From NCBI GenBank assembly GCA_964365905.1, contig CAYIRQ010000001.1:1-39692 (forward strand): DNA of 39,692 nt. Direction: 5' to 3'. Each line of letters starts with the position of its first letter. Position 1 is the stretch's first letter. Source of the DNA: an uncultured Candidatus Peribacteria bacterium. GTDB taxonomy: Bacteria; Patescibacteriota; Gracilibacteria; Peribacterales; Peribacteraceae. The notes under the pieces were generated by a model. It did not search any database and was not told where the DNA came from. It saw nothing but the letters and a program-made list of their open reading frames with translations. This document shows positions 7,032 through 27,212 of this stretch, in pieces. The translations under genes and the position numbers were made by a program.

Positions 7032-7961
7032 ATGTCTAAAACCTCTCCCCTCGCCCGTGCAGTTGATCGCTATCTCCTGCACCTCGAGTCCGAGCTCGGG
7101 AAATCGCCGCTCACGGTGAAGAACTATGCGCACCAGCTCAAAGACTTCCTTTCTGCCGTAACCATCTCCTCCCCTCTCAAAATAGATAAGAAGGTCGTGC
7201 AACTCTATAAACAGCATCTGCATCGGTTTGAGAACAGAGATGGCACGCAGCTCACCGTGCGCACGAGGAATCACCGTCTCACGGTCCTTCGAGCGTTCTT
7301 GCGGTATCTGATCCAGGAGGAAGAACTTGATGTCTACCCACCGGACCGTGTTCAACGCTTAAAAGAAGACCCTCGACAAGTAAAGGTTCTCTTTATCGAG
7401 GAGGTCGAGAGTCTTCTTGATTCACCAAACACAGGTACTCTTGCCGGAAAGCGGGACAAGGCTATCCTCGAGCTCTTTTTCAGTACAGGCCTTCGTCTTG
7501 CAGAACTCCGAAGCCTCAATCGGAAGGACCTCAACTTCACAACGAGGGAAATCAGTGTTCGCGGAAAGCGTGGGAAGATCCGACTCGTTTTTGTATCTGA
7601 TCGAGCCGCAGCGACTCTCAAGGACTACCTTCAAGGCCGCATTGATCATCTCTATCCCCTCTTCATCCGCAATCTCACGCGGACGCAGCATATTCTCCCG
7701 CCGGGGGAAGAATATCGTCTGTCCCGTATTAGCATTTACAAGATTGTGAAGAAATACGCGCTGAAAGCAGGGATTGTTTCGGATCCATCACCACATACTC
7801 TGCGTCATAGCTTTGCAACAGACTTATTGCGAAATGGAGCGGATTTGCGATCGGTGCAGGAATTGCTTGGACACAAAGACCTAAGTACAACACAGATATA
7901 TACTCACGTTACGAATCCCCAACTGAAGGAGGTACATAAGAAATTTCACAGGAAGATTTAA
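7032..7961 (+). CDS. tyrosine recombinase, XerC/XerD family
   Basis: 309 aa. It has an N-terminal SAM-like core-binding domain (…LSPLTVKNYAHQLKDFL…). The catalytic C-terminus reads …GLRLAELRSL… HTLRHSFATDLLRNGADLRSVQELLGHKDLSTTQIYTHV, carrying the R…HxxR…H…Y residues. Confidence 0.9.
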   Translation: MSKTSPLARAVDRYLLHLESELGKSPLTVKNYAHQLKDFLSAVTISSPLKIDKKVVQLYKQHLHRFENRDGTQLTVRTRNHRLTVLRAFLRYLIQEEELDVYPPDRVQRLKEDPRQVKVLFIEEVESLLDSPNTGTLAGKRDKAILELFFSTGLRLAELRSLNRKDLNFTTREISVRGKRGKIRLVFVSDRAAATLKDYLQGRIDHLYPLFIRNLTRTQHILPPGEEYRLSRISIYKIVKKYALKAGIVSDPSPHTLRHSFATDLLRNGADLRSVQELLGHKDLSTTQIYTHVTNPQLKEVHKKFHRKI

Positions 7962-7973
7962 CTTGCTAATTCT

Positions 7974-8408
7974 ATGGAAAAAGCTCGTCGCGGCATGATC
8001 GGCATATACCAATTGAAAAACGTGAAAACCGGAGAATGTTTCATTGGATCCTCTCCAAGCATTTGTAATCATTTCAAAAAACATTTAGGCAAACTTGCCC
8101 TTGGAGAGCATCCGAATACAAGTCTCCAGCAGCAATGGGACAGAGATGGAGCAGAAAGCTTTGAATTTGTATTTTTGGAGATCGCAGCGAATAAATATAC
8201 CCTTCGCGAGCGAGAGGATTATTGGCTGCAAAAGACTCAGGGAGTTCGGATTGGTGATGAGCATCAATATGCTCACGATTATGCTGATGGAGTCGGGAGA
8301 CTGACAATTTCGAAGGATTTGAAAGAGTCTCTGAAGCAGCTCGGTATTGGGAGTATGGATAACACTGCTCGTTCATTAATTCTTTTCTATAAACAGACTT
8401 CATTATGA
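7974..8408 (+). CDS. GIY-YIG nuclease domain protein (copy 1)
   Basis: GIYQLKNVKTGECFIGSS…HLGKL…REREDYWLQKT carries the GIY…(Y/F)IG…R…E signature of small GIY-YIG (homing-endonuclease-like) proteins. The region is AT-rich. The stop overlaps the next start (ATGA at 8405-8408). Confidence 0.8.
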   Translation: MEKARRGMIGIYQLKNVKTGECFIGSSPSICNHFKKHLGKLALGEHPNTSLQQQWDRDGAESFEFVFLEIAANKYTLREREDYWLQKTQGVRIGDEHQYAHDYADGVGRLTISKDLKESLKQLGIGSMDNTARSLILFYKQTSL

Positions 8409-8851
8409 ATGCCCCATCTCTCAAAGGTATTTATCAGATCAAGAATGTCCTTACTGGTGAGTGTTACATTGGTTCTTCTTTCAACATTCAAAGGAGATTG
8501 GCCGACCATATGAGATATTTGTCAGATGGAGTGCATATCAATAAAATGCTGCAGGGATCATGGAAAAAATATGGATCAGAGAATTTTACAATTTCGATTC
8601 TGGAAATTGTTGGAGATGATCTTGCTCTCGCTGAAAGAGAGATCTTCTGGGTAAAGAAAACTCGCGCGGAAAAAGACGGATTTAATACAAAGACTGATCA
8701 ACACAAATATTCCTCTGTTATTGTAGTTAATCTAACCACGAAGTTTGAGTTGGAAAGCTTAGGCATGGGGTCAATGCAGTCGACATTAAGTCAACTTCTG
8801 AAGTTTTATCAGAAGCAGCATGGCAGTAAGCCCACTACTGAACGATTATGA
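8405..8851 (+). CDS. GIY-YIG nuclease domain protein (copy 2, tandem paralog)
   Basis: GIYQIKNVLTGECYIGSSFNIQRRLADH…AEREIFWVKKT is a textbook GIY-YIG. The C-terminal tail LESLGMGSMQSTLSQLLKFYQKQ parallels LKQLGIGSMDNTARSLILFYKQ of copy 1. There is an ATGA overlap with the next gene at 8848-8851. Confidence 0.85.
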   Translation: MNAPSLKGIYQIKNVLTGECYIGSSFNIQRRLADHMRYLSDGVHINKMLQGSWKKYGSENFTISILEIVGDDLALAEREIFWVKKTRAEKDGFNTKTDQHKYSSVIVVNLTTKFELESLGMGSMQSTLSQLLKFYQKQHGSKPTTERL

Positions 8852-9384
8852 GAATCAGATTTTTCAATTTAATTGTAAGTCTTCGAAAGATTCCGGCTTG
8901 TAGAGCCAGATATCCCCAACAGGCCGCATCCTTTATCGGTTTATATGAAAAACCGATGCTGGGTCAATGCGCTTCTGTGTTAGAAGAGCTGGCAAAAAAA
9001 TCGCGCGATGCATCGTGGCTACTCAAGAACTTGTTTATTGAGGGTTTCCTCATACACGCGAGGAATGTTCGAGATTTTTTGTTCAATCCTCCCGTGAACT
9101 GGAATGACGATATTGTCGCAGCGGATTACCTGACATCTTGGAATAAAAAAATAAAGAAAGAGTGCAAGTTTCTCCACTCTAAAAAAGCCCAGATAGATCG
9201 ATCTGCACTACATCTGTCATACTCACGCATAGATTACGAAAGTAAGGGAAAGTTGGAGATCGAAGATTGCCTCAGAATTAATGGTGAGTTGGAGATAGTA
9301 TGGTGTGAATTCTGGGCGAGATTGCCGGATGAGAAGCGCAGATGGTTTTTAGAGAGGAATGAATGGTCCCCTCCGGCCTCGTAA
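8848..9384 (+). CDS. hypothetical protein (no recognisable family)
   Basis: 178-aa ORF translationally coupled to the GIY-YIG pair, with the same AT-rich composition. Sequence includes …WLLKNLFIEGFLIHARNVRDFLFNPP…IDRSALHLSYSRIDYE…. An alternative ATG lies at 8956. It ends inside a terminator hairpin. Confidence 0.6.
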   Translation: MRIRFFNLIVSLRKIPACRARYPQQAASFIGLYEKPMLGQCASVLEELAKKSRDASWLLKNLFIEGFLIHARNVRDFLFNPPVNWNDDIVAADYLTSWNKKIKKECKFLHSKKAQIDRSALHLSYSRIDYESKGKLEIEDCLRINGELEIVWCEFWARLPDEKRRWFLERNEWSPPAS

Positions 9385-9410
9385 GGAACAGCGGAGGGGG
9401 ATTTTTCTTC
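9368..9410. terminator. bidirectional rho-independent terminator between convergent genes
   Basis: The stem CCCCTCCG (9368-9375) pairs with CGGAGGGG (9392-9399), followed by ATTTTTCTTC on the + strand. It lies between the stop of 8848..9384 (+) and the stop of 9411..9740 (-). Confidence 0.55.
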
Positions 9411-9740
9411 TCATGCAATCTGATCCATCTTCGCTGCCACAATGAAGTCATTCTCACTGAGGCCACCGATCGCATGCGTCCAGAGCGTGAGCGTCATGGA
9501 ACCCCAGCTCACTTCGAAATCCGGATGATGATTCTCACTCTCGGCGATATCAGCGACCTTCTCAAAAAACGCGCGTGTTTCTTTGAAATTCTTAAATTTG
9601 AATGTACGTGCAATCTTCTTCCCGTTCTCACTTAGCTTCCATTCCGGTGTTTGCTTCCGGAGTTCTTCCGCTTCACTTCGTGTGAGCGGCGCGACGCCGC
9701 CTTTGCAGGGGAGGCAGTGTTTGGAGGTGAGAGAGGACAC
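9411..9740 (-). CDS. pterin-4-alpha-carbinolamine dehydratase (PCD/DCoH)
   Basis: 109 aa. Motifs include …W…ENGKKIARTFKFKNFKETRAFFEKVADIAESENHHPDFEVSWGSMTLTLWTH…GGLSENDF. The HHPD core and the length are typical of PCD. Confidence 0.9.
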   Translation of the reverse strand: MSSLTSKHCLPCKGGVAPLTRSEAEELRKQTPEWKLSENGKKIARTFKFKNFKETRAFFEKVADIAESENHHPDFEVSWGSMTLTLWTHAIGGLSENDFIVAAKMDQIA

Positions 9741-9797
9741 GCGGTGATTGTGGCATGAGAATATGACCAGCGCACCCCTCCGTGGGTGCGCTTTGTT

Positions 9798-10226
9798 TCA
9801 AGCAGTTTCCACGAGCCATTCACCGGATGCGGATGACCACGGATAGTCCTCAGGAATACTTACAAGTTCCGCCTTCACAGGATTTTCATGGATATAGCGT
9901 AAAGCAATTTCAGCATTGTCCGGTAAACGGACATGGAAACGTGGTTGCCATATTTTTGAAAGACCAAGATCAAAGGTAAGGCCGGATTTGTAAGAGTTCA
10001 TTATTTTGGAAATGGATTCCGGTGGAGGGATAAAAAGAAGGAAATGGCAATGGTCTGGCATGATAACGAATCCGTATAAAAGAAAAGGTCGCTGCTTTTG
10101 TACCCGATAGAGGCATTCAATCGCTTCTCGCGCATATGCAGGGTTGGCAAAAACCGGCTCTCGATTTGCAGTGACGGTTGTCACGAGCATGAGGACATCA
10201 TTTTGTACAGGATGACGTTGGGTCAT
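9798..10226 (-). CDS. REP-associated tyrosine transposase / IS200-like Y1 (HUH) transposase
   Basis: …LLYGFVIMPDHCHFLLF… carries the HUH motif as H-C-H. …ALRYIHENPVKAELVSIPEDYPWSS carries the catalytic Tyr and the NPV…LV…WSS tail typical of RAYT/COG1943. The ORF-track start at 10271 lies inside the tandem repeat, so I prefer the ATG at 10226 (MTQRHPVQ…). Confidence 0.8.
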   Translation of the reverse strand: MTQRHPVQNDVLMLVTTVTANREPVFANPAYAREAIECLYRVQKQRPFLLYGFVIMPDHCHFLLFIPPPESISKIMNSYKSGLTFDLGLSKIWQPRFHVRLPDNAEIALRYIHENPVKAELVSIPEDYPWSSASGEWLVETA

Positions 10227-10253
10227 AAAGGCGTAGAGAATATCACATGAAAT

Positions 10254-10315
10254 CGCAGCCACGGAGGGCATATGACCGCAGCCACGGAGGGCATATGACC
10301 GCAGCCACGGAGGGC
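10254..10315. repeat. 23-bp tandem direct repeat, 2.7 copies (CGCAGCCACGGAGGGCATATGAC)
   Basis: Read directly from the sequence. Two copies are identical (10254-10276 and 10277-10299). A third copy (10300-10315) diverges into a GCAGCC/GGCTGC hairpin. Confidence 0.9.
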
Positions 10316-12035: not shown

Positions 12036-13913
12036 ATGCAGCTCATGATCCCTCTTTCCGGGCGATGGAAGGTTCTCCTCGCGGCTGCAGTCCTCATCCT
12101 TCTCATTCTCGGGGGGACGTTTTTCTTTTTCCGCAACGGCAGGAGCTCGGGTGACTTAAGGCTCGCGCATCTCGAGGGCATCGCCCGCATTCTCGAAACG
12201 TATCGCGAGAGAAATGGCTTCTACCCTCAACCCGCCGCCCGCATGGAGACGCTGGAGGGAGTGAAACATGTCTGGGGATATCGAAGCAGCCGCCCGGCGC
12301 TTGCTTCCTGCACCGTGAAGATGATGGACGGAGTCGTGGACCCCGAATCTTCTGCGTGCGGAGGAGAAATCTATGACGTCGAGGGCAACGTCATTGGCTG
12401 GAAGGGGACGATCGCGCTCGAGAGCGCGGGGAACAGCGTCGAAGTCGCGGGGAGAGAAGGTCGTCTCGTCGCTCCCCTCGGAGACATGCTGAACGCGCTC
12501 CCATCAGATCCCGGTTATGGCTCCACTCCTGATCTTACGAAGTACGGATTCGGGGAATACATCTACGCCGTGCGCATGCCGGAGGATGGTGCAGTCGGCA
12601 AGGGCGGCGCCCAATACCAACTTGCTGCGACCGTGAGGGATCCCGCGACCGGAACCCTCAGAACCTTCATCCGCGGGGATTACTTCGTGCGTTCCGAGGA
12701 ACGGGGGACGCTCCCTCCTTCCCTCATCGGACCGGGCATGCTCCTGAATGAAAAGGGAGAGCCCGTGGGAGTCGCTCCACTCCACGTTCTCATCGATACA
12801 CAGGCGCAAGGGTATCCGAATCCCCTCCTTGGGGAAGGAGAACATGTGCTCCGGCAACTTTCCGTCCATGGCAAAGCGGATGTTCTGCAGAATGTTCTCG
12901 AGCGACGTATTGAACTCCTCCCGCTGCTTCCGGAAGGCTCCGCGCGCGAAGAACTTTCTTCCTCACTCTCGACGCTTGATGATTCCGTAACCAATCTCCT
13001 CACGACACTAACGGAAAAAGAAGCCGAACCGGTTCAGGCGGAAGGTCTGAGTCGCTCAGAAGTGCAGGTGAATGAGCTTGCGATGAATGCGGAACTGGCG
13101 CTTGCAACCTATCTTTCTGCGGTGGCGGAAGAAGCCGAGCAGATGCTTATTGCCGAACGGGACGAGCGATCTTCGCATGTGGCAGCGCTTTCGGGAGCCC
13201 TGCTTGCACTCCTTGATGTTGAGAAAGACGCGCTCTTTGCCCGCGATGAAATCCTCAAATATCTCGATGGAGAGGGTATCGAAGAGCAGGCGCGGAGTCG
13301 CGCCGGACGCAAGATCGAGAACGCGCTTGCGGGTATTCCGGATTTTTCTTCTCAGCGACTCTTCCTCACGGAGGAAGCGGAGAAAGCCATTCAGGAGCTT
13401 GGGGAAGTCGAGGGTGAAGCCCCTGCCACATCTGCATTCTCCGGGGGCACCACGACGCAGACCACCCTCATTCCCGCCGTTTTTGCGCTCACGGTGTCGC
13501 AGGAACTTTCCGTTCTTCTCAGGGAATTGCGCGGCATCCTGCGCGATATTCAGGAGGATCTTCAGAATCCCTCGATTCCCATGGAGGAACTGGATGATGC
13601 CATGCGAAGGCTTTCACGAGCCCTTCGCAGCGAGATGGAGCGCGTCGAAGGATTGCTCAGAGAACTTGCACCGGCGGAGAATCTCTCATCACTTCTTGCC
13701 GCATTCCAAACGGAGCGCGCTTCTCACGCATCGCTCGCTCTCGCTCATCTCTCGAAAGCAATGAAACTCCACGGGCACTTTGCTCCACTCCTGTTCTCGA
13801 AGGAGCGTCTCGAAAATATCGTTCTTCGGGGGCAAACGGGAGTCCCGGATGTATCCGCCTATGAACATCCTGAGGAAGCCGAATACCAGGGCATTCCGTA
13901 TCCTTTACCTTAA
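12036..13913 (+). CDS. membrane-anchored hypothetical protein (pilin-like head without a prepilin motif, acidic coiled-coil tail)
   Basis: 625-aa ORF with an N-terminal TM segment (WKVLLAAAVLILLILGGTFFFF). This is followed by …RLAHLEGIARILETYRERNGFYPQP…, a pseudopilin-like phrase. The C-terminal half is rich in E, L and A. Its stop overlaps the ROK start (TAATG). Confidence 0.65.
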   Translation: MQLMIPLSGRWKVLLAAAVLILLILGGTFFFFRNGRSSGDLRLAHLEGIARILETYRERNGFYPQPAARMETLEGVKHVWGYRSSRPALASCTVKMMDGVVDPESSACGGEIYDVEGNVIGWKGTIALESAGNSVEVAGREGRLVAPLGDMLNALPSDPGYGSTPDLTKYGFGEYIYAVRMPEDGAVGKGGAQYQLAATVRDPATGTLRTFIRGDYFVRSEERGTLPPSLIGPGMLLNEKGEPVGVAPLHVLIDTQAQGYPNPLLGEGEHVLRQLSVHGKADVLQNVLERRIELLPLLPEGSAREELSSSLSTLDDSVTNLLTTLTEKEAEPVQAEGLSRSEVQVNELAMNAELALATYLSAVAEEAEQMLIAERDERSSHVAALSGALLALLDVEKDALFARDEILKYLDGEGIEEQARSRAGRKIENALAGIPDFSSQRLFLTEEAEKAIQELGEVEGEAPATSAFSGGTTTQTTLIPAVFALTVSQELSVLLRELRGILRDIQEDLQNPSIPMEELDDAMRRLSRALRSEMERVEGLLRELAPAENLSSLLAAFQTERASHASLALAHLSKAMKLHGHFAPLLFSKERLENIVLRGQTGVPDVSAYEHPEEAEYQGIPYPLP

Positions 13914-14835: not shown

Positions 14836-16425
14836 ATGCGTTGGAGAAATATCCTCCTCTGCGCACTCCTCCTCCTCCCGCTCGCCATTCTTCCCGCTCA
14901 TGCCGGGGAGGGTACGCATCCTGCGGTTCTCCTTCGAAGGGTCATTCCTACGGAAAAACCAAAGGAGGCGAAAAGCAGAATCACGTTCACCGACGGATGG
15001 CGGAGGCCCCATTCGATTCGATCGCATTTCCGTGATTCCTGGCATCGGTCGCGGGGCGTGGACATCCTGGGAGCGGAGGCCGCTTCTGCATCGAGCGTGT
15101 ATGGCGCTGAGCTCTCCCGTACGCAACGTCTCGCGAACCTCGTGGATCTCATCAATCAGAATTTATTGCTCTCCGTCTCGTTCGTTCTCGCGGCGGTCGT
15201 CATCTCGGTTCTTGGAACACGTTCGAATCTGCGCCGAAAATGCACCACGATGATCTGCGTGCTCGAGCGTGTCATGGTCCCGCTCGACAAGCATTTCCAG
15301 CACGCGCGCCTCCTCCTTCGCTTCTTCCTCCTCGCATCGGGTATGGGAGTTCTTTTCTGGCTCACAGCGGTCTATGCGGCCGCGGAGACAGCGGTTCTCG
15401 TAAACACGGAGGCCTTTTACCGCATCGATGATCTCGACACCGGGGCGGATGTACAGCTCAAGTTTGGTGATGTCGTCAATGAGCAACTCAATTGGGAACG
15501 AGCGACGGGCCGCTTCCGCTTCACGGATGACCTCTACATCGAGGGGAATCTCGAAGTTGCGGGGACACTGTCCGGATCCTCGACGATCACGCTGAGCTCC
15601 CTCAAGGGCTGCGACACGATCGATACCACGATCAACGGTGTGCTCACGTGCGGGACGGATGCAGGGCCAGGCGCCGCCGTGAATATCCAGACCTTCACCG
15701 CAACAGGGACATGGACAAAGCTAACGCCGGCGCCGACGGTCACGCGGATCCAGCTCTGGGGTGGCGGCGGATCGGGCGGACGAGGCGGCAGTGCCGATGC
15801 CGGTGGAGGCGGAGGCGGCGGGAGTTATCTCGATGTCCTTGTTGCGACCTCCACACTCAGTGCCACAGAAACCTGTGGGGTCGGACCGGGAGGCGCTGCA
15901 GCAACGTCGGATGAACAGAACGGCAACTGGGGAGGGCAAACGACATTCGATGTCTATCGGGCGTATGGAGGTGGTCCCGGTTTCGGCGCAACAAACACGA
16001 ATGGTGGCGGTGGTGGTGGCGCTTGCCCGTTTGCAAACGGAAATATCGGCACGGCGTCAGCCGGCGGCACCGGAGGGTGCGGGGCGGCTGCCGGTGTGGA
16101 TGACTATCTGGGAGGAGGCGGCGGAACCGTCAATGGCGGAGATAGTGGGACAGGGGGCGGCGGAGGAGGACTCGGCGTCACGAGCGGAACCGAGGGTGCA
16201 GGGGGGAGAAGCATCTATGGAGGTGGTGGCGGTGGCGGCGCCGATGGGGGTGCCACGCCCACGTCGGCTGGCGGAGATTCTCTCTATGGGGGTGATGGTG
16301 GAATAGGTTCAACGGCAACCACAGTAGCGACGAATGGCGCTCAGCCGGGGGGCGGCGGAGGCGGTTCGGAATCAGCGAATTCCGGTGCCGGGGGCGCCGG
16401 AAAATGCATCATCACGTCGTGGTGA
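14836..16425 (+). CDS. multi-TM surface protein with a C-terminal glycine-rich (ALK/LTK Gly_rich-like) domain
   Basis: The ATG at 14836 gives the signal peptide MRWRNILLCALLLLPLAILPAHA|GEG. The ORF-track start at 14680 overlaps the ROK gene. There are two further TM segments, then a LKFGDVVNEQLNWERATGRFRFTDDLYIEGNLEVAGTLSG module. The tail reads FTATGTWTKLTPAPTVTRIQLWGGGGSGGRGG…GGGGGGG…. Confidence 0.7.
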   Translation: MRWRNILLCALLLLPLAILPAHAGEGTHPAVLLRRVIPTEKPKEAKSRITFTDGWRRPHSIRSHFRDSWHRSRGVDILGAEAASASSVYGAELSRTQRLANLVDLINQNLLLSVSFVLAAVVISVLGTRSNLRRKCTTMICVLERVMVPLDKHFQHARLLLRFFLLASGMGVLFWLTAVYAAAETAVLVNTEAFYRIDDLDTGADVQLKFGDVVNEQLNWERATGRFRFTDDLYIEGNLEVAGTLSGSSTITLSSLKGCDTIDTTINGVLTCGTDAGPGAAVNIQTFTATGTWTKLTPAPTVTRIQLWGGGGSGGRGGSADAGGGGGGGSYLDVLVATSTLSATETCGVGPGGAAATSDEQNGNWGGQTTFDVYRAYGGGPGFGATNTNGGGGGGACPFANGNIGTASAGGTGGCGAAAGVDDYLGGGGGTVNGGDSGTGGGGGGLGVTSGTEGAGGRSIYGGGGGGGADGGATPTSAGGDSLYGGDGGIGSTATTVATNGAQPGGGGGGSESANSGAGGAGKCIITSW

Positions 16426-16464
16426 TCGGGTAAAAATGATAGTTGTCTTCGGGAGAGAAGTTCC

Positions 16465-17595
16465 TTAGTCCTTCGTCTCCCAATTGAGCTCGATGAACCC
16501 GGCGTCTGCGAACTCGTTATTGAGTCCGGAGCCAGAGGCCGTCATCTTGAGGAGGAAGGTCATGTAGTCGTCCGCAGTGAAGGTGCCGCTGCTTTCCGGG
16601 CCCGTGATCGTTGCGATTTGCCAGTTCGCGCCCGTGAGGCCCGACCCGCCCGAGAGCGGAACAATGGTGTCATTGGTATCCAGAAGCTTCACGTTGAGCG
16701 AGCCGCCGGAGCCTCTGTAGCTAAACTGAATCGGCTTCACCGGATCCCAGCTGCGGAAGGTATTGGGGATCCGCACCTGCGTCGCGATCCAATACTGCTG
16801 CGCGGTCGTCTTCGTCGTCTGCCAGCGGTAGTAGTTGATAGAACTTCCAGAGCTATAAAGCGCGGAGAGCGTTCCCACTTTGCTCGCGCCGCTCCCGAAG
16901 TACGTGGCATTCGGGTACGTGGGCTTGAGCCAGACGATGGATCCGCTGCTTGCGCTTCCGCTCGTCCAACTCAGCTTCCCGGTCGAAGGATCCACGGAGA
17001 GGAGCCTGCCGGACGCTGTGGCCGCGCTTTCCGGCCATGTGTACTGCACGTTATTGAAGGAGGTTGCGCCATCGAAGGAGACGGCGCCGCTCGCGGAGAG
17101 GTTGCCGGTGATCCGGAGATCATCGGAGAATTCAAATTCGTTGAACGTATCGGAGAACTTCAATGTCTTATTACCGGCATCATTCCCAAATGTGAGTGTC
17201 GCATCGGCGGCAGTTTGATCGTCATTGATCGTGAGATCACTGTCCGTTCGCACGGCTCCTGAAGCAGTGAGAGCCCCGTGGACATTTGCTCCCCCATCGA
17301 CCCTCAGAGAGGAACCAGAAAGAGATCCCTGAACTGAAAGGTCATCCGTCAATTCAAAGCGTCCATTGTCACGATGCCATAGAAGTTTCTCATTGAGCAC
17401 TTCACCGAAACGGAGTTCTATTGGTGTTGTCCCATCTCCTTCACCAACGTAGTCGAACGACTCGTTATTCACGAGGAGAGTAGTTGCCGAGAGAGCTTGC
17501 AGTGGAAATCCACCGGCGAAAAGTGCAAGAGCCGCGGCGGATCCAATCCACCGACAAACGTTATCGCTTTGCCGTCTTTTTGTCTGTTTCTTCAT
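16465..17595 (-). CDS. secreted surface protein, paralog family member
   Basis: The ATG at 17595 gives the signal peptide MKKQTKRRQSDNVCRWIGSAAALALFAGGFPLQALSA. It contains the module LRFGEVLNEKLLWHRDNGRFELTDDLSVQGSLSG. Its C-terminal domain is homologous to the C-terminus of the 1026-aa ORF. Confidence 0.7.
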   Translation of the reverse strand: MKKQTKRRQSDNVCRWIGSAAALALFAGGFPLQALSATTLLVNNESFDYVGEGDGTTPIELRFGEVLNEKLLWHRDNGRFELTDDLSVQGSLSGSSLRVDGGANVHGALTASGAVRTDSDLTINDDQTAADATLTFGNDAGNKTLKFSDTFNEFEFSDDLRITGNLSASGAVSFDGATSFNNVQYTWPESAATASGRLLSVDPSTGKLSWTSGSASSGSIVWLKPTYPNATYFGSGASKVGTLSALYSSGSSINYYRWQTTKTTAQQYWIATQVRIPNTFRSWDPVKPIQFSYRGSGGSLNVKLLDTNDTIVPLSGGSGLTGANWQIATITGPESSGTFTADDYMTFLLKMTASGSGLNNEFADAGFIELNWETKD

Positions 17596-17669
17596 GTTTT
17601 TGGTATTCCGAATAGTATAGCATGAACTCGTTCTCTCGTGCGGGGTCATATGATGGGTTTGGAAAGACG

Positions 17670-20600
17670 TTACTGTACGGGCAGCTCCACGAAGTCGAGC
17701 GTGAGATCGCCGGTGTGCATCTGGAAGTTATCCTTCGCATACATTTTGAGCTTCACGAGGAAGTCCTGTCCGGCTGTCCATGTCGGAGACCCTCCGAAAT
17801 TGAGCGTCGTCGTCGTCCAGCTCGTGCTTGCGAGGCTTGTGGAGGGACCCCCCGTGAGCGTGACCGGAGCACCATTCGTGTCGAAGACGGAGATATCCAT
17901 CTTGTTGTTGGCGGTGTCCACCGAAGTCGAGCGGTAACTCACTTTGAGCGCGCCGCTTCCCCAGCGCACAAACTCAGGGGAGAGCGTGATGCGAATGGAA
18001 ATGTCGTAGTCCTGGAGAGTCGAGGATGTGCTCGTCCAAAGGTAGTAGTTCCGGAGCGTGATGTTGTCGTGCGACACATACATGCGGCCGACGTTATTCG
18101 TCGCGTCGCCCTGATAGCTCGCGTTCTGATGTTCCGCATGGTAGATCTGCTGCATGGTGCGCTCGCGATCGTCGTTCGTGAGCACGCGCTTATCGGTCAC
18201 CGTCTGGAGACCACCTGCCTGCGTCGTGACTTCCGCAAGCGGGATGTAACTCTCGTCGGTCGGGTAGGTGGACAGCCGCGCCGTGATGCCGCCGGATCCG
18301 AAGAAGATGTAGTTCAAGGCATTATTTGTGAGCGAAAGATTTTGGCCGGAGAAACTGCGGTTATTTCCCGCAAGCCGGTAATTCCCCGGGTTCACCTTCA
18401 CCGTAAGACCGCCGCCGGAGGCGACTTTGAGCGCACCCGTGAGCGTCCGAAGGTCGATAGTATTAATGAGACCGGAGACCGTCAGGCTCCCCGTGACGGT
18501 GAGATTCCCCTGAATGCGCACGTCGTCATTGAAGTTGAATCGGTCGTTTGCGATATCGAAGCTGAACATGTTCGCGATGGTGCTCCCGAACTGCAGACCG
18601 ATGGAGCTCCCTTCCGAACCATCCGCATCGATCGCGAAGGTTCCCCTGTTCGTTCCTGCCGGGATAGTGCTTACCGGCAATAGTCCCCCGCTCCCAAGGA
18701 CGGCAATGGAGCCGCTCGCCGTCCCCGTATCGTGCTTATCGAGGAGATCGGCATTGAGCGCGAATGGCACCGAGAGCACCGGTGAGCGGTCGACGGTGTC
18801 GCTGCTCGTGTTGACATCGAGGAGCTCGTAACTCGTGTCGGCCGCCGCCGAGGCTTTCACTTCGACCTGCAAGAAGAGATCTGTCAGTGTGCTCGTATCC
18901 ATTGTTTGGAAATTGAGAAGCGCAGTGACGCTCCCGAGGCTGACCGAGAAGTAGCCTTGGCTGTTCGGCGTCACCGTATGCACCTCCTGCCAGCCGGCGT
19001 AGTTTGAGGATCCGGTGTTGATGGCGCCGGTGCCGGTTGTATCCGAGGAAACATAATCCGCGCTCTTCCATTCGCTGAAGCGGATCGTATGCGGCGTTGT
19101 CACTGCCGTCCCGTTACTTGTGAGCAGGTGTCCGTGGTAAACGTGCTTCTGCGGAACCGTGACTTCCGCAAATGCCAGCTTGCTCTTGCCGAGGGTCATT
19201 GCAGCAATTCCCGTGAGAAGGAGCAGGAGCGTGAGATGCGAACGTGTGAAGGATCCACCATTCGGTCCTTTTCTCCCGGAAACGTTCTTGCCTCTCATTC
19301 GTCGAGCAACGTTGCGCATCCTTTTTTGTGCGCTCTCGCGCGTCGGCTTGAACGCGAGGAGAATCGCAATGAGGAGCAGGACGAGCGCGAGCAGAATGTT
19401 GCGCTGCAGGAGCAGAGTGTTGTATGAAGTCTCCGGGGCGGGAGAACCGCCGTACGCACCCGCTCTTGGAGTGCCAAAGATGTCCGTTCCCCCAGAGCGA
19501 TGCCAGGCATCCTGGAATCTATTGCGCATGAGGCTCTGCACCGGGCGATGCCACGCATCGAGATAGCGCATCCCATTTGCACCTCTCCTCTGAGACGGAG
19601 CAACCTTGGCGTTGCTTCGCTTGGGTTCGACTTTCTTCGGCACCGGTCTCCCGATGAGTCCTTCTTTCGGAATTCCTGGAGGAGCAGCGACTGGTGCGGC
19701 GGGCGCTGCGGGACGGGGTGATGGCGTCTGCGGCGCCTTCGGTGGTTGAGGCGTAGGAGCCGGGGGGGGCTGTGACGGAGGACTGCCTGGAACCCGCCTG
19801 CCGCCGCCTCCAGGTGATTCGTTGCCTCCGTTGCCACCAACACCTGTTCCACCGCCTCCACCACCCACACTGCCTCCACCGCTCGTTCCATACGGCAAAC
19901 CCGTCACAATTTGATAGTTCGCACCCGTGACGGGCAGATTGAGATCGGTGATCCCCGCTTCCTCCAGTTTGTAATTCGCGCCGATCTTCGCGCTTTTCTC
20001 CACGTAGTCTGTGACATCCCCGTACATGCGATAGTTCGTGCCTTCTGCAGCCTGCGCTTCTCCGGGGTTTGCAAGAAAACCCGCCGCAAGGAAGGTGAGG
20101 AAAACGAGAGCAAGCGTACTCATCCCGCTTCCCCCCGCATCGTTTCCTTTCTCCACTGCCGTCTGCTTTTTCTCCATCTGCATCATCCAATGCTTCAGTG
20201 CCTCCTGCGTCATGCGCATTTCGGAGGCGATCAAAACGTTCGTTACGTCATGCTCGCAAACTTTCACAGCGTTGCACCCCGCTCTCTTGAGCCAATGAGA
20301 AGGCGTGTCACCGAAGAAGAATCCATGCCGACGGATAATGCGCCCGATGGAGGACGCGGAGAGCGTGACGCCGTGCTCTCTCCTCAATTTCTCCCGTATG
20401 CGCTCACGACTCATCTTCGGGTCCGTCGTCCGATGGTTTCGAATGATCTCAATGACTTCCGGCGATGCTTCCGGTTGTCTCATTGTTCGTGGTCGCTTCG
20501 ATCGGTCCTCGAGCGTCGAAGGATCCGATGGATCAAATCGCTTCGCCCAGCGATTGAATGTTGCCGGTGTGATATCAAACGCTTTGCATGTCCTGCGAAC

Positions 20601-20750
20601 ATTTCCACACTCGAGCGCATATGCAAACCATCGCAATCGCTCTTGAGCAGATGTGCTCAGGCTCAGAGCATTCGCCCTTTGGATCAGTCTCCTGATGTCC
20701 TCAAGCGAAGCATTCTGCCTCTCAGGCTTTTTATTATTTGTATTATCCAC
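17670..20750 (-). CDS. large surface protein; longest ORF has an IS481-like transposase HTH N-terminus in frame (alternative start 20123)
   Basis: 1026-aa uninterrupted ORF. Residues 1-150 are HTH-like (…CGNVRRTCKAFDITPATFNRWAKRFDPSDPSTLEDRSKRPR…IIEIIRNHR…SASSIGRIIRRHG). Residue 210 onward gives MSTLALVFLTFLAAGFLANPGEAQA (signal/TM), then a Gly/Pro-rich linker, a WHR motif, two TM segments and a beta-rich ectodomain of about 550 aa. Confidence 0.7.
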   Translation of the reverse strand: MDNTNNKKPERQNASLEDIRRLIQRANALSLSTSAQERLRWFAYALECGNVRRTCKAFDITPATFNRWAKRFDPSDPSTLEDRSKRPRTMRQPEASPEVIEIIRNHRTTDPKMSRERIREKLRREHGVTLSASSIGRIIRRHGFFFGDTPSHWLKRAGCNAVKVCEHDVTNVLIASEMRMTQEALKHWMMQMEKKQTAVEKGNDAGGSGMSTLALVFLTFLAAGFLANPGEAQAAEGTNYRMYGDVTDYVEKSAKIGANYKLEEAGITDLNLPVTGANYQIVTGLPYGTSGGGSVGGGGGGTGVGGNGGNESPGGGGRRVPGSPPSQPPPAPTPQPPKAPQTPSPRPAAPAAPVAAPPGIPKEGLIGRPVPKKVEPKRSNAKVAPSQRRGANGMRYLDAWHRPVQSLMRNRFQDAWHRSGGTDIFGTPRAGAYGGSPAPETSYNTLLLQRNILLALVLLLIAILLAFKPTRESAQKRMRNVARRMRGKNVSGRKGPNGGSFTRSHLTLLLLLTGIAAMTLGKSKLAFAEVTVPQKHVYHGHLLTSNGTAVTTPHTIRFSEWKSADYVSSDTTGTGAINTGSSNYAGWQEVHTVTPNSQGYFSVSLGSVTALLNFQTMDTSTLTDLFLQVEVKASAAADTSYELLDVNTSSDTVDRSPVLSVPFALNADLLDKHDTGTASGSIAVLGSGGLLPVSTIPAGTNRGTFAIDADGSEGSSIGLQFGSTIANMFSFDIANDRFNFNDDVRIQGNLTVTGSLTVSGLINTIDLRTLTGALKVASGGGLTVKVNPGNYRLAGNNRSFSGQNLSLTNNALNYIFFGSGGITARLSTYPTDESYIPLAEVTTQAGGLQTVTDKRVLTNDDRERTMQQIYHAEHQNASYQGDATNNVGRMYVSHDNITLRNYYLWTSTSSTLQDYDISIRITLSPEFVRWGSGALKVSYRSTSVDTANNKMDISVFDTNGAPVTLTGGPSTSLASTSWTTTTLNFGGSPTWTAGQDFLVKLKMYAKDNFQMHTGDLTLDFVELPVQ

Positions 20751-21057
20751 GTTGTGAAGCCATGAAATTGATGTGTATTTCCACAGATCATTCTATCATA
20801 TTTTGCAACATTGCGCTTCCCTCTCTTTGATTGTTTGCTTGCTTTTTTGCATGCAGGATGGACAGGAGATTCTGGCTTTCTCAAAAGACTTTTCGATTTT
20901 CGACTTCCATCTTTCTGAACATTTCTCTTTTGAGACTGTCTCTGCAAGGTTTTCAAGAATTCGTCTCTCTCTGAGCAGAACTCTCCCCTCTATCGGACAT
21001 TCATCTCCCTGTGTACAGACGTTGCTCATCTCTCTGCTCAAAGCTACTCTTTCGCCG

Positions 21058-22119
21058 ATGAGACAGTTCTTCTCCGGGTTCGCGGTTCTCCTGGTCTTGA
21101 GTATTTTTTCTCCCCCTGCGTTTGCGCAGCAGTCTTTTACAGACGTCCCTCAGGATCATCCCGCCTATGCCGCGATTGAACATCTCAAGTCAATCGGTGT
21201 ACTCCAAGGGTATCCCGATCCCAAAGCCCTAGGGGCTCCCCTTCGGGGAGGGGACCCTTCGGGTCGGACATTCCAGCCGGACCGAACGGTGAATCGTGCG
21301 GAGGCAACGAAGATTATTGTCGCACCGAGAGCCACTGCCGATGCATTGGCAACGTTCACCACATCTCCGTTCATGGATGTCCCCGAGGGAGTGTGGTATC
21401 TCCCGTACGCCGAAATGGGACGACAGGTTTTTGGATTTCTCGACGGGCCGCCGAAGAGGATGAAGTTCGAAGGCGAACGTGGTGTGCAGAAGGTGGAGTT
21501 CCTCAAGATGCTCCTCACGACCTATCAGGTGGATACCTCCGCATTCAGCGAGATCACGTTACCACTTGCGAGAGATGTCACGGATGCAAACGCGTGGTAC
21601 TACCCGCACCTTCGCTACAGCCTCACGGCTTCGATGACGATGGTTGGGAATGACGGGCTGCTTTCCCCTGCGAAACCTCTCACGAGGGGAGAGGTTGCGC
21701 TGCTCCTCTACCGGTTCCTCATGTACCGCGAGAATCGCAGAACGCAGGCGCTCCTCTCTGAGGCCGAGCAGGAAATCGTCCGCATTCTCGATGCCCTCGG
21801 GAAGAATGATATTCTGCAGGCGGAATACGCATCCGCACGGGCACTCCTCGCTTCCCGCGGCGCCCATGCGAGTCGTCCGGATACTCCCCTTGTGAAAGCT
21901 GCACTCAAGGTGACGGAAGCATTCCGCACGCTCGTGCGCGCGTATCGCGCGGGCCTCAACAAGGATTTTAACATGGTCATCGAGCTCACGAAGCAGGCAT
22001 GGACGCTCTCCAATCAGGCACTGGAATACAGTGCGGACATGGGGCCCATCGTCGAGCAGCTCCAAGCAAGCGCGCATGCGATGGCGGAGAGCGCAAGATC
22101 TCTTGGAAGGAAACCTTAA
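21058..22119 (+). CDS. SLH (S-layer homology) domain protein
   Basis: The ATG at 21058 gives the signal peptide MRQFFSGFAVLLVLSIFSPPAFA|QQ. An SLH repeat follows: SFTDVPQDHPAYAAIEHLKSIGVLQGYPD…FQPDRTVNRAEATKIIV, plus two degenerate repeats. The ORF-track start at 20773 adds 95 implausible residues. Confidence 0.75.
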   Translation: MRQFFSGFAVLLVLSIFSPPAFAQQSFTDVPQDHPAYAAIEHLKSIGVLQGYPDPKALGAPLRGGDPSGRTFQPDRTVNRAEATKIIVAPRATADALATFTTSPFMDVPEGVWYLPYAEMGRQVFGFLDGPPKRMKFEGERGVQKVEFLKMLLTTYQVDTSAFSEITLPLARDVTDANAWYYPHLRYSLTASMTMVGNDGLLSPAKPLTRGEVALLLYRFLMYRENRRTQALLSEAEQEIVRILDALGKNDILQAEYASARALLASRGAHASRPDTPLVKAALKVTEAFRTLVRAYRAGLNKDFNMVIELTKQAWTLSNQALEYSADMGPIVEQLQASAHAMAESARSLGRKP

Positions 22120-25619: not shown

Positions 25620-27212
25620 ATGCACCGCTCCGCCATCTTCTCCCTCGTCGCTGCAATACTTTTCGTGCCTCTTGCGGTCGGTGCGGCCGGTCTCTCTGTC
25701 ATGATTGATGGACGGACAGTGGTGTTCTCGGACGTGCCGGAAGACGCATGGTTCTCGACATACGTGCAACAGGCTGCAGAAGCGGGAATTGTCAGTGGAT
25801 ACAGGGATATGCAGGGGAACCTCACGGGGAAATTCGGGCCGGGTGATCCCGTGACGATCGCACAGGCACTCAAAATTGCCGTGGAGGGAGCTGGGTATTC
25901 AGTTACACCAATTTCTGCATTCAATTGCTCAGGACCATGTCATTGGGCGACTGGATATGTCCAGCTTGCGCATGACAGGCACTTTCCATTTTTTGCCACA
26001 GATGGGGAATACCTTGTTGAAATTGATCGTCCTGCAATACGCGCGGAGCTGGCACAGATTTTTGTTGATGCTTTCAAGCCCACTCAAAAGGTTGACACGA
26101 TTATCCCCGAGACGTACTCGGATGTTGATCTCAGCGACTCAGAACACTATGCAGGCGCCATTAATTCTTTGACACAGGATGGCATTTTATCCGGCGACGG
26201 GCAGTGCAATATTCAGGAAAGTGGCTGGTGTCCCAGAACCACTTTTCGTCCCAAGGATGTTATCAACCGCGCGGAGACCGTGAAGATCGTGATACGAGCA
26301 CGTGAAGTCTATGGAGAATTAGAAGGAAGTATGGAACAGGAAAAGAATTCCTCGAGTGTTGTTACATACACCGACGATGGATTCACACCCTCGGAGCTTC
26401 ATGTGAAAAAGGGAGAACGTGTGACTTTCCTGAATACCTCTGCCCACATGATGTGGATTGCTTCTGACCCGCATCCCGATCATACGAACCTCGAGTACTT
26501 TGATGCCGGGAGAGGGTATGATCAGGGAGAAACGTACGAGTTTGATTTCCTGCGCGCTGGCAGGTGGGGATTTCATAATCATATGAATCCGCAGCATCGT
26601 GGATTGATTATTGTCGAGTCCGGTGAATCGGATGGCTCCTCGACTTGGAAAACCTACACGAATTCTAAATACGGATTTGAGTTTAAATATCCGCAAAATC
26701 TTGATCTTCCCTGTTTAGGCGATGGTTTCAGCGACTGCGACCCGGAACAAGAATGGAGCTACATTGAAATATGGGGTTCTCTTGAAAATGATCCAAGAAT
26801 CATGACTATTAATATATATGAACCTGGAGATTGCGGTTTGGTGCTAAGCCGACAAGGTCCTGACCCTAAGTACAGCTACGTCTACAAAGAAAATGGTCTT
26901 ACTCTTGGGTTGGAAAACTTTGTTGAACATATTCGAATGTACAATAGTTCGTATCTAAAAGATGCCAGCTCTGCTAATAAGCGCACGATAGGAGAATCGA
27001 TTACATTAACTTCTGTAGCAGGATTACCTGCCTATAGTTTTTCCTACACAAATGACCATCTGGATGGCTGTGGTGATTTTTCACTATTTGTAAACAAAAA
27101 AGCCACCGCTCTTTATTTAGAAAAAAACAATGTTTTATACACTTTTCATTTCTTTTCGGATGATATTGTTGCAGACAATATTCTTTCAACATTTAGATTT
27201 ACCAAGCCATGA
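25620..27212 (+). CDS. SLH-domain surface protein with a Cys-less cupredoxin-like domain and an AT-rich C-terminal module
   Basis: It has a signal peptide (MHRSAIFSLVAAILFVPLAVGAAG). SLH repeats follow (VFSDVPEDAWFSTYVQQAAEAGIVSGYRD…; YSDVDLSDSEHYAGAINSLTQDGILSG…FRPKDVINRAETVKIVI). Then comes a cupredoxin-like segment (GFTPSELHVKKGERVTFLNTS…GRWGFHNHMNPQHRGLIIVE), then WKTYTNSKYGFEFKYP…. Confidence 0.8.
   Translation: MHRSAIFSLVAAILFVPLAVGAAGLSVMIDGRTVVFSDVPEDAWFSTYVQQAAEAGIVSGYRDMQGNLTGKFGPGDPVTIAQALKIAVEGAGYSVTPISAFNCSGPCHWATGYVQLAHDRHFPFFATDGEYLVEIDRPAIRAELAQIFVDAFKPTQKVDTIIPETYSDVDLSDSEHYAGAINSLTQDGILSGDGQCNIQESGWCPRTTFRPKDVINRAETVKIVIRAREVYGELEGSMEQEKNSSSVVTYTDDGFTPSELHVKKGERVTFLNTSAHMMWIASDPHPDHTNLEYFDAGRGYDQGETYEFDFLRAGRWGFHNHMNPQHRGLIIVESGESDGSSTWKTYTNSKYGFEFKYPQNLDLPCLGDGFSDCDPEQEWSYIEIWGSLENDPRIMTINIYEPGDCGLVLSRQGPDPKYSYVYKENGLTLGLENFVEHIRMYNSSYLKDASSANKRTIGESITLTSVAGLPAYSFSYTNDHLDGCGDFSLFVNKKATALYLEKNNVLYTFHFFSDDIVADNILSTFRFTKP

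Follow-up and report, generated by a model that had tools for sequence, protein, structure and literature searches.

Do a transposase-type DNA-binding domain and a large surface protein form one genuine gene product, or do they share a reading frame by accident? This question is raised by an open reading frame (ORF) of 1026 aa at 17670..20750 on the minus strand of a 39,692-nucleotide contig (CAYIRQ010000001.1, assembly GCA_964365905.1, positions 1 to 39,692; hereafter the window) from an uncultured Candidatus Peribacteria bacterium, a groundwater member of the candidate phyla radiation (CPR). A preliminary description of the sequence had offered two readings, namely a membrane-tethered DNA-binding protein similar to ToxR and CadC, or a domesticated transposase fragment in front of a surface gene that really starts at an internal ATG at 20123. 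We favour, at a rough probability of 0.6, a composite explanation in which the ORF is a genuine and recurrent fusion of three modules, with processing and regulation. That the fusion is real is considered quite likely; the regulatory and processing steps are put forward more tentatively, at somewhat less than even odds.

The ORF contains no internal stop. It begins with the GTG at 20750, the earliest start codon past an in-frame TAG (20795-20793), and ends with a TAA/TAG-type stop (17670-17672). When it was aligned with orthologous helix-turn-helix (HTH) proteins, its N-terminus paired with theirs residue by residue. Module A (aa 1-157; 20280..20750; all parts of the ORF lie on the minus strand) is a predicted cytoplasmic, IS481-transposase-derived bipartite (paired-like) HTH with a net charge of +14, identified using Pfam, NCBIfam, AlphaFold2 (AF2) and Foldseek.

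The IS481-type HTH noticed in the preliminary description was confirmed by profile searches. HTH_32 (aa 64-139, E-value 1.2e-11, 45.4 bits, cutoff 33.7) and HTH_28 (aa 37-88, 28.3 bits, cutoff 25) scored above their Pfam thresholds, with HTH_29, HTH_33 and HTH_23 as weaker matches on the same ORF, and the bipartite transposase-type HTH spans aa ~34-157. Residues 38-157 matched the N-terminal half of the NCBIfam IS481 transposase model NF033577 (positions 2-116 of 284, E-value 1.6e-21); the whole-protein score of 77 bits is under the cutoff of 224 because the catalytic half has no match. The earlier statement that no DDE/rve core follows also held. There was no Pfam match to rve anywhere in the ORF, and tblastn with true IS481-type transposases matched only window positions 20313-20684 (the HTH part), with no rve remnant and no second HTH copy in the window. 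No IS-like terminal inverted repeats were found around the HTH, where the repeat search gave short chance-level repeats alone. Distant homologs at E-values of about 1e-17 are complete IS481-type transposases (HTH_28+HTH_32+rve+rve_3). Across 76 family members of all architectures, six residues were invariant and 26 nearly invariant, the DNA-binding residues being conserved, and the HTH is therefore taken to be under purifying selection. Judged by sequence, the module is a domesticated descendant of the N-terminal DNA-binding domain of an IS481-family transposase, without the catalytic core.

A bipartite, paired-like HTH is typical of transposase N-termini. When the N-terminal 245 aa were modelled with AF2 (76 relatives in the alignment), an all-helical structure was obtained with a predicted local distance difference test (pLDDT) score above 90 for aa 11-160; it comprises two helical subdomains, a long helix (150-200) and a further helix (211-225). 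Foldseek placed the Pax5 and Pax6 paired domains at the top (probability 0.89-1.0, E-values 0.15-0.2) with low TM-scores, as the subdomains differ in orientation, and Mos1 and TnsB lower in the list. With such weak E-values the paired-like fold assignment is consistent rather than proven. A profile search against PDB sequences had a designed repeat protein as its sole match, which was judged spurious. The GC content at third codon positions (GC3) is 0.47-0.57 in the first 120 codons (20391-20750), that is in the HTH part, and mostly 0.65-0.82 over the remaining ORF, except at the first membrane junction and in a Gly/Pro-rich stretch. Public records label these HTH genes 'transposase' or 'hypothetical'.

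Module A is followed by a linker (aa 158-206; 20133..20279), predicted by AF2 as one long helix, and by three hydrophobic segments in the hydropathy profile (aa 207-229, 445-471 and 504-522). The first transmembrane segment, TM1 (aa 207-234; 20049..20132), is an internal signal-peptide-like segment, GSGMSTLALVFLTFLAAGFLANPGEAQA, with a terminal AxA signal-peptidase-type motif (AQA, 232-234). Module B (aa 235-444; 19419..20048), predicted to lie outside, consists of a small domain (AEGTNYRMYGD...YQIV), the Gly/Pro-rich low-complexity stretch and a WHR juxtamembrane motif. TM2 (aa 445-471; 19338..19418) leads to a basic loop with a net charge of +10 (aa 472-503; 19242..19337; predicted cytoplasmic) and to TM3 (aa 504-528; 19167..19241), a second internal signal-peptide-like segment that ends in AFA (526-528). 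The flanking charges of the three segments fit a predicted N-in topology. By the positive-inside rule (HTH +14, loop +10), the HTH and the loop would be cytoplasmic, and aa 235-444 and 529-1026 outside.

An AxA-like motif stands immediately in front of the conserved start of the module B domain, (A/L)E(S/G)xS(Y/F), and is kept in fused and split relatives; another precedes the conserved start of module C, TxP..H.Y.GHLL. The position of the motif is the exact end of true signal peptides in split orthologs, and two of the orthologous loci (L007 and L012) have an ordinary N-terminal signal peptide where the window has TM3.

Module C (aa 529-1026, 498 aa; 17673..19166) is a fibre-like ectodomain. 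Two parts of it were modelled confidently, an N-terminal domain rich in beta structure and a jelly roll at the C-terminus (aa 863-1026; 17673..18164), and the middle 200 residues were left unmodelled as a monomer. With Foldseek, the jelly roll resembled CBM61, CBM11, CBM22 and CBM27 carbohydrate-binding modules (CBMs) and the C-termini of Klebsiella phage tailspikes (E-values 6e-5 to 1e-3), as well as the distal domains of phage tail fibres. No known sequence family was detected for the ectodomain in Pfam or NCBIfam, and no SLH domain in the 1026-aa ORF. The first ~240 ectodomain residues are conserved among relatives, all of which have the N-terminal beta domain, and the C-terminal half is variable. 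This pattern is interpreted as that of a fibre whose tip can be exchanged and probably binds sugars.

A word-indexed search with the HTH part returned only two matches, both stand-alone proteins of 181 aa; an exhaustive HMMER search gave 1211 relatives, 32 of them with E-values <1e-30. The best 150 of these 1211 fell into four architecture groups: proteins of 800-2100 aa with an N-terminal HTH and the plan of the window ORF, proteins of 230-290 aa with an HTH and a single TM segment near the C-terminus, HTH-only proteins of 150-230 aa, and complete transposases of 330-350 aa with far weaker scores. A set of 34 fused proteins, all of at least 700 aa and including the window and three genome loci, was then compared. 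A hydrophobic stretch followed by an AxA-like motif was present in all 34, and a Met within -15 to +3 of TM1 in only four; most fused relatives therefore have no possible separate ATG start. As their HTH parts are only ~37-55% identical to that of the window, the preservation of the fused plan is more than chance would give.

Eleven loci were obtained from a scan of reference genomes, ten labelled Peribacteria or Peregrinibacteria and one 'Patescibacteria group' only. Uninterrupted fused ORFs were seen at the DNA level in three of them (L005, 1044 aa; L006, 990 aa; L008, 1008 aa). A separate HTH gene of 178-195 aa was found in the remaining eight and in three metagenome contigs (L002, L003 and L024), with a distance of -4 to +5 nt between its stop and the ATG at which an ordinary signal peptide (MRRF..., MKK...) begins. 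A check for a stop between the two parts in orthologous loci, as proposed in the preliminary description, thus had a divided outcome, since about two thirds have one and the rest are open, and the fused and split states alternate in evolution. Fused and split forms do not separate in a rough neighbour-joining (NJ) tree of the HTH but alternate among its branches, a pattern suggesting that fusion or fission happened repeatedly. Short hydrophobic or proline-rich tails (e.g. ...GVYAS, ...GIFAS, ...PVFGS and ...LPLPPLPTS) abut the coupled start codon in the split HTH proteins of L002, L007, L009-L015 and L024.

Across 13 loci the genes keep one order: first a divergent SLH gene, next the HTH, then module B (if the locus has it) and module C, and lastly paralogs of p394 type. 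In these syntenic loci, from different Peribacteria species, the HTH keeps its position at 39-60% identity, and module C is 43-56% identical to that of the window. Module B is missing in L007 and L012, and two proteins (P0031 and P0083) have modules A and B without C. In most Peribacteria the three modules are, as judged from this layout, adjacent and translationally coupled genes. The fused or coupled pairing recurs lineage-wide, so that a real gene family, and not insertion-sequence debris, is indicated.

The nearest relatives of the window ORF (L005, P0004 and P0006) are fused, and one member of the same clade (P0005) is split; the linker helix is common to all. At the homologous junction the fused members have G-x-G just before TM1 and then the h-region. 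A search for full-length homologs gave one match, P0001 on contig L001, which was set aside as uninformative for the junction because the 5' end of L001 is chimeric. For the fibre part, L001 is the sole close relative (75-89% identity). Its positions 1-2686 form a mosaic, in which a response-regulator receiver fragment is joined at a shared DL(K/N)LP to aa 270-760 of the window ORF, and its C-terminal domain is that of the neighbouring p394 gene of the window. It is either a chimeric assembly or the result of recombination between tandem fibre paralogs.

At the junction itself the frame is open, as the preliminary description had stated, through the ATG at 20121..20123 (M210) into MSTLALVFLTFLAAGFLANPGEAQA, with AEG immediately after. 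M210 is not conserved in fused relatives; the position is S, T or H in the closest ones, which argues against a conserved internal start and against a frameshift artefact. The proposed start at 20123 was not borne out, as no promoter-like or Shine-Dalgarno (SD)-like signal precedes it. More widely, neither a -10-like box nor an SD motif was found before any internal Met between aa 150 and 560, this ATG included, and a sigma-70 scan of 16300-21300 gave no promoter-like sites and one terminator-like hairpin, fewer than the chance expectation. Gene starts across the window are without SD motifs, and a TAYRNT box lies within 45 nt of the start in 7 of the 16 window genes versus 5.7% of random positions. 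The box-to-start distances suggest very short leaders. Boxes resembling TATACT or TATAAT are located 19-36 nt before start codons, for example at 12036, 17595, 25620 and 3687, and stop/start overlaps between neighbouring genes are common in the window (e.g. TAATG at 13913).

We infer that downstream genes here rely on their own promoter or on termination-reinitiation. This need would account for how closely stop and start are spaced in split loci, and also for why loss of the stop is tolerated when the next product opens with a cleavable signal sequence. The base after the internal ATG is an A, and the resulting 'ATGA' at 20123 is possibly a relic of an overlapping stop/start as in split orthologs. 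Programmed frameshifting was considered and dropped: the -1 frame after GAGAAAAAG is open for ~200 codons without a homolog, and no sign of a designed shift was seen.

The HTH family also occurs as free-standing HTH-TM paralogs of ~250 aa with one C-terminal TM segment (L016 8001-8828; L017/L018 8001-8750; L019 6001-6756; L021 6001-6765; L022 6001-6741). All five overlap the start of the next gene by 1-11 nt, and that gene is giant: the partners are 4758, 3559 and 3069 aa long, with two partials at sequence ends of at least 2106 and at least 632-640 aa. Laminin_G_3, LVIVD, FG-GAP or Peptidase_S74 domains are present in four of the five giant proteins. Upstream of the HTH-TM loci an SLH-like gene is found in two and LemA in another two, never both. 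Taken together, the HTH family in Peribacteria always stands directly in front of a large, predicted exported protein, whether the HTH is soluble, membrane-anchored or fused.

A candidate DNA site was found as well. A 21-nt direct repeat with the consensus RAAAGTTCAGRNACATGCGCN is conserved upstream of the HTH genes. Across 13 loci there are 63 hits within 1.3 kb upstream of the HTH start, 62 of them co-oriented, versus six in ~116 kb elsewhere; the motif model was built from some of those same upstream regions. Arrays contain up to 11 copies at a spacing of 67-100 nt with unconserved spacers (L013 4823-5804; L009 5245-5900; L014 3696-4673; L002 1208-1490). With a simplified pattern, eight matches were counted in L013 versus 0.20 expected, and none of 200 shuffles reached eight. 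At all five paralogous HTH-TM loci, none of which was used for model building, one co-oriented copy lies 220-321 nt upstream. The window has a single copy, AAATGTTCAGAAAGATGGAAG, at 20904..20924 on the minus strand, 174 nt before GTG 20750, as the candidate operator. The motif has two conserved blocks ~10 bp apart, a spacing that would suit a bipartite HTH, and our hypothesis is that the HTH binds it. A possible lead is that IS481 ends may contain GAAGATTCAA. A comparison of the motif with IS481 terminal repeats was dropped, as the plasmid search gave only ~30%-identical IS481 transposases. The IS481EU paper gives the termini only as TGT..ACA.

In the composite explanation, translation from GTG 20750 would yield a single polypeptide, which the Sec pathway would insert via TM1 with the HTH inside the cell. 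Signal peptidase I would cut after AQA(234) and AFA(528). Three products would result: an HTH of ~234 aa anchored by TM1, a membrane protein of hairpin form, and a fibre that is either released or bound to the wall. The anchored HTH would thereby match the final form of the free-standing HTH-TM paralogs. The HTH would bind the 21-nt repeat upstream of its own gene; the fibre operon would be under its control, possibly together with the divergent SLH gene. The output of the regulator would thus be tied 1:1 to production of the exported protein.

Several points weigh against this explanation. The HTH is a separate soluble protein in about two thirds of the orthologous loci, and membrane tethering thus cannot be essential for its role. 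The evidence for signal-peptidase I cleavage consists of motifs, and the NJ tree behind repeated fusion or fission is crude. The motif copy in the window is single and degenerate (score 15.9), with an equally good match elsewhere in the window, and the motif may instead serve as a promoter element or be bound by another protein. Finally, within the 63 nt that precede ATG 20123, the loss of one base would be enough to make the HTH frame end at the TGA of ATGA and so to restore the split layout.

This last point is the basis of one rival, in which an error of one base in the A5 or G6 run, made in sequencing or assembly, has opened the junction, and a real HTH gene of ~209 aa ends at that TGA. 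The +1 frame is indeed open over those 63 nt and ends exactly there, and both homopolymers fall within them (the G6 run at 20131..20136, 8 nt 5' of ATG 20123). No near-identical contig was found for a cross-check: an exact look-up of the window protein gave no record, and a metagenome scan for close relatives of aa 1-245 gave 40%-identical split loci only. A small artefact probability remains for that reason. The rival is nevertheless judged quite improbable, because the in-frame ...KGNDAGGSG and the h-region after it reproduce the 'G-x-G then h-region' of the three closest fused relatives, because the frame-shifted tail CRWRKSRRQWRKETMRGEAG is without counterpart in relatives, and because fused orthologs are common in independent assemblies.

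Less improbable, yet still unlikely, is the formation of two products, with the surface protein made from ATG 20123 as a signal-peptide precursor and the HTH either a regulator that recently lost its stop or an untranslated relic. It would account for the 'ATGA', which equals the overlapping stop/start of split orthologs, and is in keeping with the split state of most orthologous loci and with the plausible h-region and AxA site from M210 onward. In the absence of a stop, however, every ribosome starting at GTG 20750 reads through, and the HTH, which shows no damage, can be aligned with functional relatives over its entire length. The putative start MSTLAL has no basic n-region, unlike the MRRF... 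and MKK... of split forms, and both the replacement of M210 in fused relatives and the lack of a -10-like box or SD motif upstream speak against it too. A decaying IS481 copy lying upstream of a surface gene by chance, with the HTH as junk, is hardly credible. The lower GC3 of the first 120 codons and the name 'transposase' given to relatives by annotation pipelines could be cited for it, but the HTH occupies the same syntenic position in 13 loci of different species, which already contradicts it; there is, moreover, no rve remnant, no terminal inverted repeat and only a single copy in the window, and the DNA-binding residues are conserved. Of the two readings in the preliminary description, the membrane-tethered DNA-binding protein is thus the better fitting, given that fused orthologs are common, mostly without a junction Met, and that no signal precedes 20123. 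From the other reading the domesticated fragment was retained, and the gene start at 20123 was not.

A bolder extension of the composite explanation, which we regard as speculative and rather unlikely, is an export-coupled circuit. The HTH would be a cytoplasmic 'handle', an N-terminal extension of the signal sequence of the fibre that reaches the membrane along with each molecule exported, binds the 21-nt array beside its gene and tethers the locus to the membrane. If this were true, such anchoring could assist very large proteins in being exported co-transcriptionally and co-translationally, and intramembrane cleavage of the leftover signal anchor could free the HTH and so report export flux to the promoter. 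A single device, spread across the Peribacteria, would then exist in three versions (fused, coupled and HTH-TM); its components would be a domesticated transposase DNA-binding domain and relics of its binding sites.

The composite explanation was compared with known systems. Transmembrane transcription regulators form a broad class defined by the presence, in the same polypeptide, of a DNA-binding domain and one or more transmembrane regions (PMC10269533), and the ORF falls within it by its HTH (aa 34-157) and three predicted hydrophobic segments. The likeness to ToxR and CadC proposed in the preliminary description, to which TcpP may be added, stood as regards topology: an N-terminal cytoplasmic DNA-binding domain, a linker, a membrane segment and the remainder outside, so that the membrane is where the regulator is made or acts. 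It did not extend to the domain, which is a transposase-type bipartite HTH without a Pfam match to Trans_reg_C (the OmpR/PhoB winged helix). Nor did it extend to the outside part, which is a fibre cargo with a CBM-type tip instead of a small sensor domain. The ORF also has three hydrophobic segments, whereas ToxR and CadC are single-pass; its conserved signal-peptidase-type sites suggest that the parts are separated after insertion, and many relatives encode these parts in separate genes.

IS481-family transposases share the N-terminal HTH_28+HTH_32 module with the ORF, which differs in having no DDE core, inverted repeats or mobility, in a locus fixed across a bacterial class, and in its partner, an exported fibre. 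An HTH-only product coupled directly upstream of a second frame recalls OrfA/OrfB of IS3-type elements. The Bradyrhizobium FbcH cytochrome b/c1 precursor is a polyprotein cut at an internal signal peptide. As in FbcH, several mature proteins per ORF are predicted here, with internal signal-like segments and AxA sites; the difference is that the first product would be a DNA-binding protein and that cleavage is deduced from motifs. Phage tail fibres and tailspikes and bacterial fibre adhesins likewise have a conserved N-terminal part, a variable C-terminal part and a jelly-roll end domain, but the ORF is chromosomal, is made with membrane-anchoring modules and belongs to no detectable sequence family.

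In the Peribacteria genome paper (PMC4736985), large extracellular proteins were described as intriguing and strain-variable and S-layer genes were reported, and the HTH module was unmentioned. No bacterial description of this HTH family was found in the literature searched. We rate it as an undescribed family of putative membrane-linked regulators built from a domesticated transposase domain. Domestication of transposase DNA-binding domains is well documented in eukaryotes, and this would be a clear bacterial case. Large CPR cell-surface proteins are thought to mediate attachment, and it is to such proteins that the domesticated domain is coupled. We know of no work on regulation in the Peribacteria lineage, for whose surface-protein genes a candidate regulator and a candidate DNA site are now supplied. 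The same modules occurring fused, coupled or membrane-anchored also constitute a natural experiment bearing on gene fusion, signal-peptide processing and membrane-tethered transcription factors.

The surroundings of the ORF agree with the gene order given above. The divergent SLH-domain protein (21058..22119, plus strand) is syntenic in nearly all orthologous loci; by homology and signal peptide its true start is probably ATG 21058 and not 20773. Downstream lies a fibre paralog of p394 type (16465..17595, minus strand), with its own TATACT box and signal peptide and a position kept in relatives. It probably starts at ATG 17595, with the TATACT box 5' of it, the mechanical ORF start (17596-17649) being too early. 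The paralog at 14836..16425 (plus strand) has, as noted in the preliminary description, the same TM plan without an HTH: a signal peptide, a TM segment, a basic loop and a signal-like TM segment lead to a Gly_rich_2 ectodomain, and its juxtamembrane stretch is homologous to that of the ORF (28% identity, E-value 1e-12).

A second SLH-domain protein, with a cupredoxin-like domain, is encoded at 25620-27212 (plus strand). No phage genes were found near the fused ORF in the window. The region 7032-10271 contains a Phage_integrase tyrosine recombinase (7032-7961), a stretch of low GC content (0.40; 8001-9000) and an IS200-like Y1 transposase fragment (9798-10271), and may be an integrated element.

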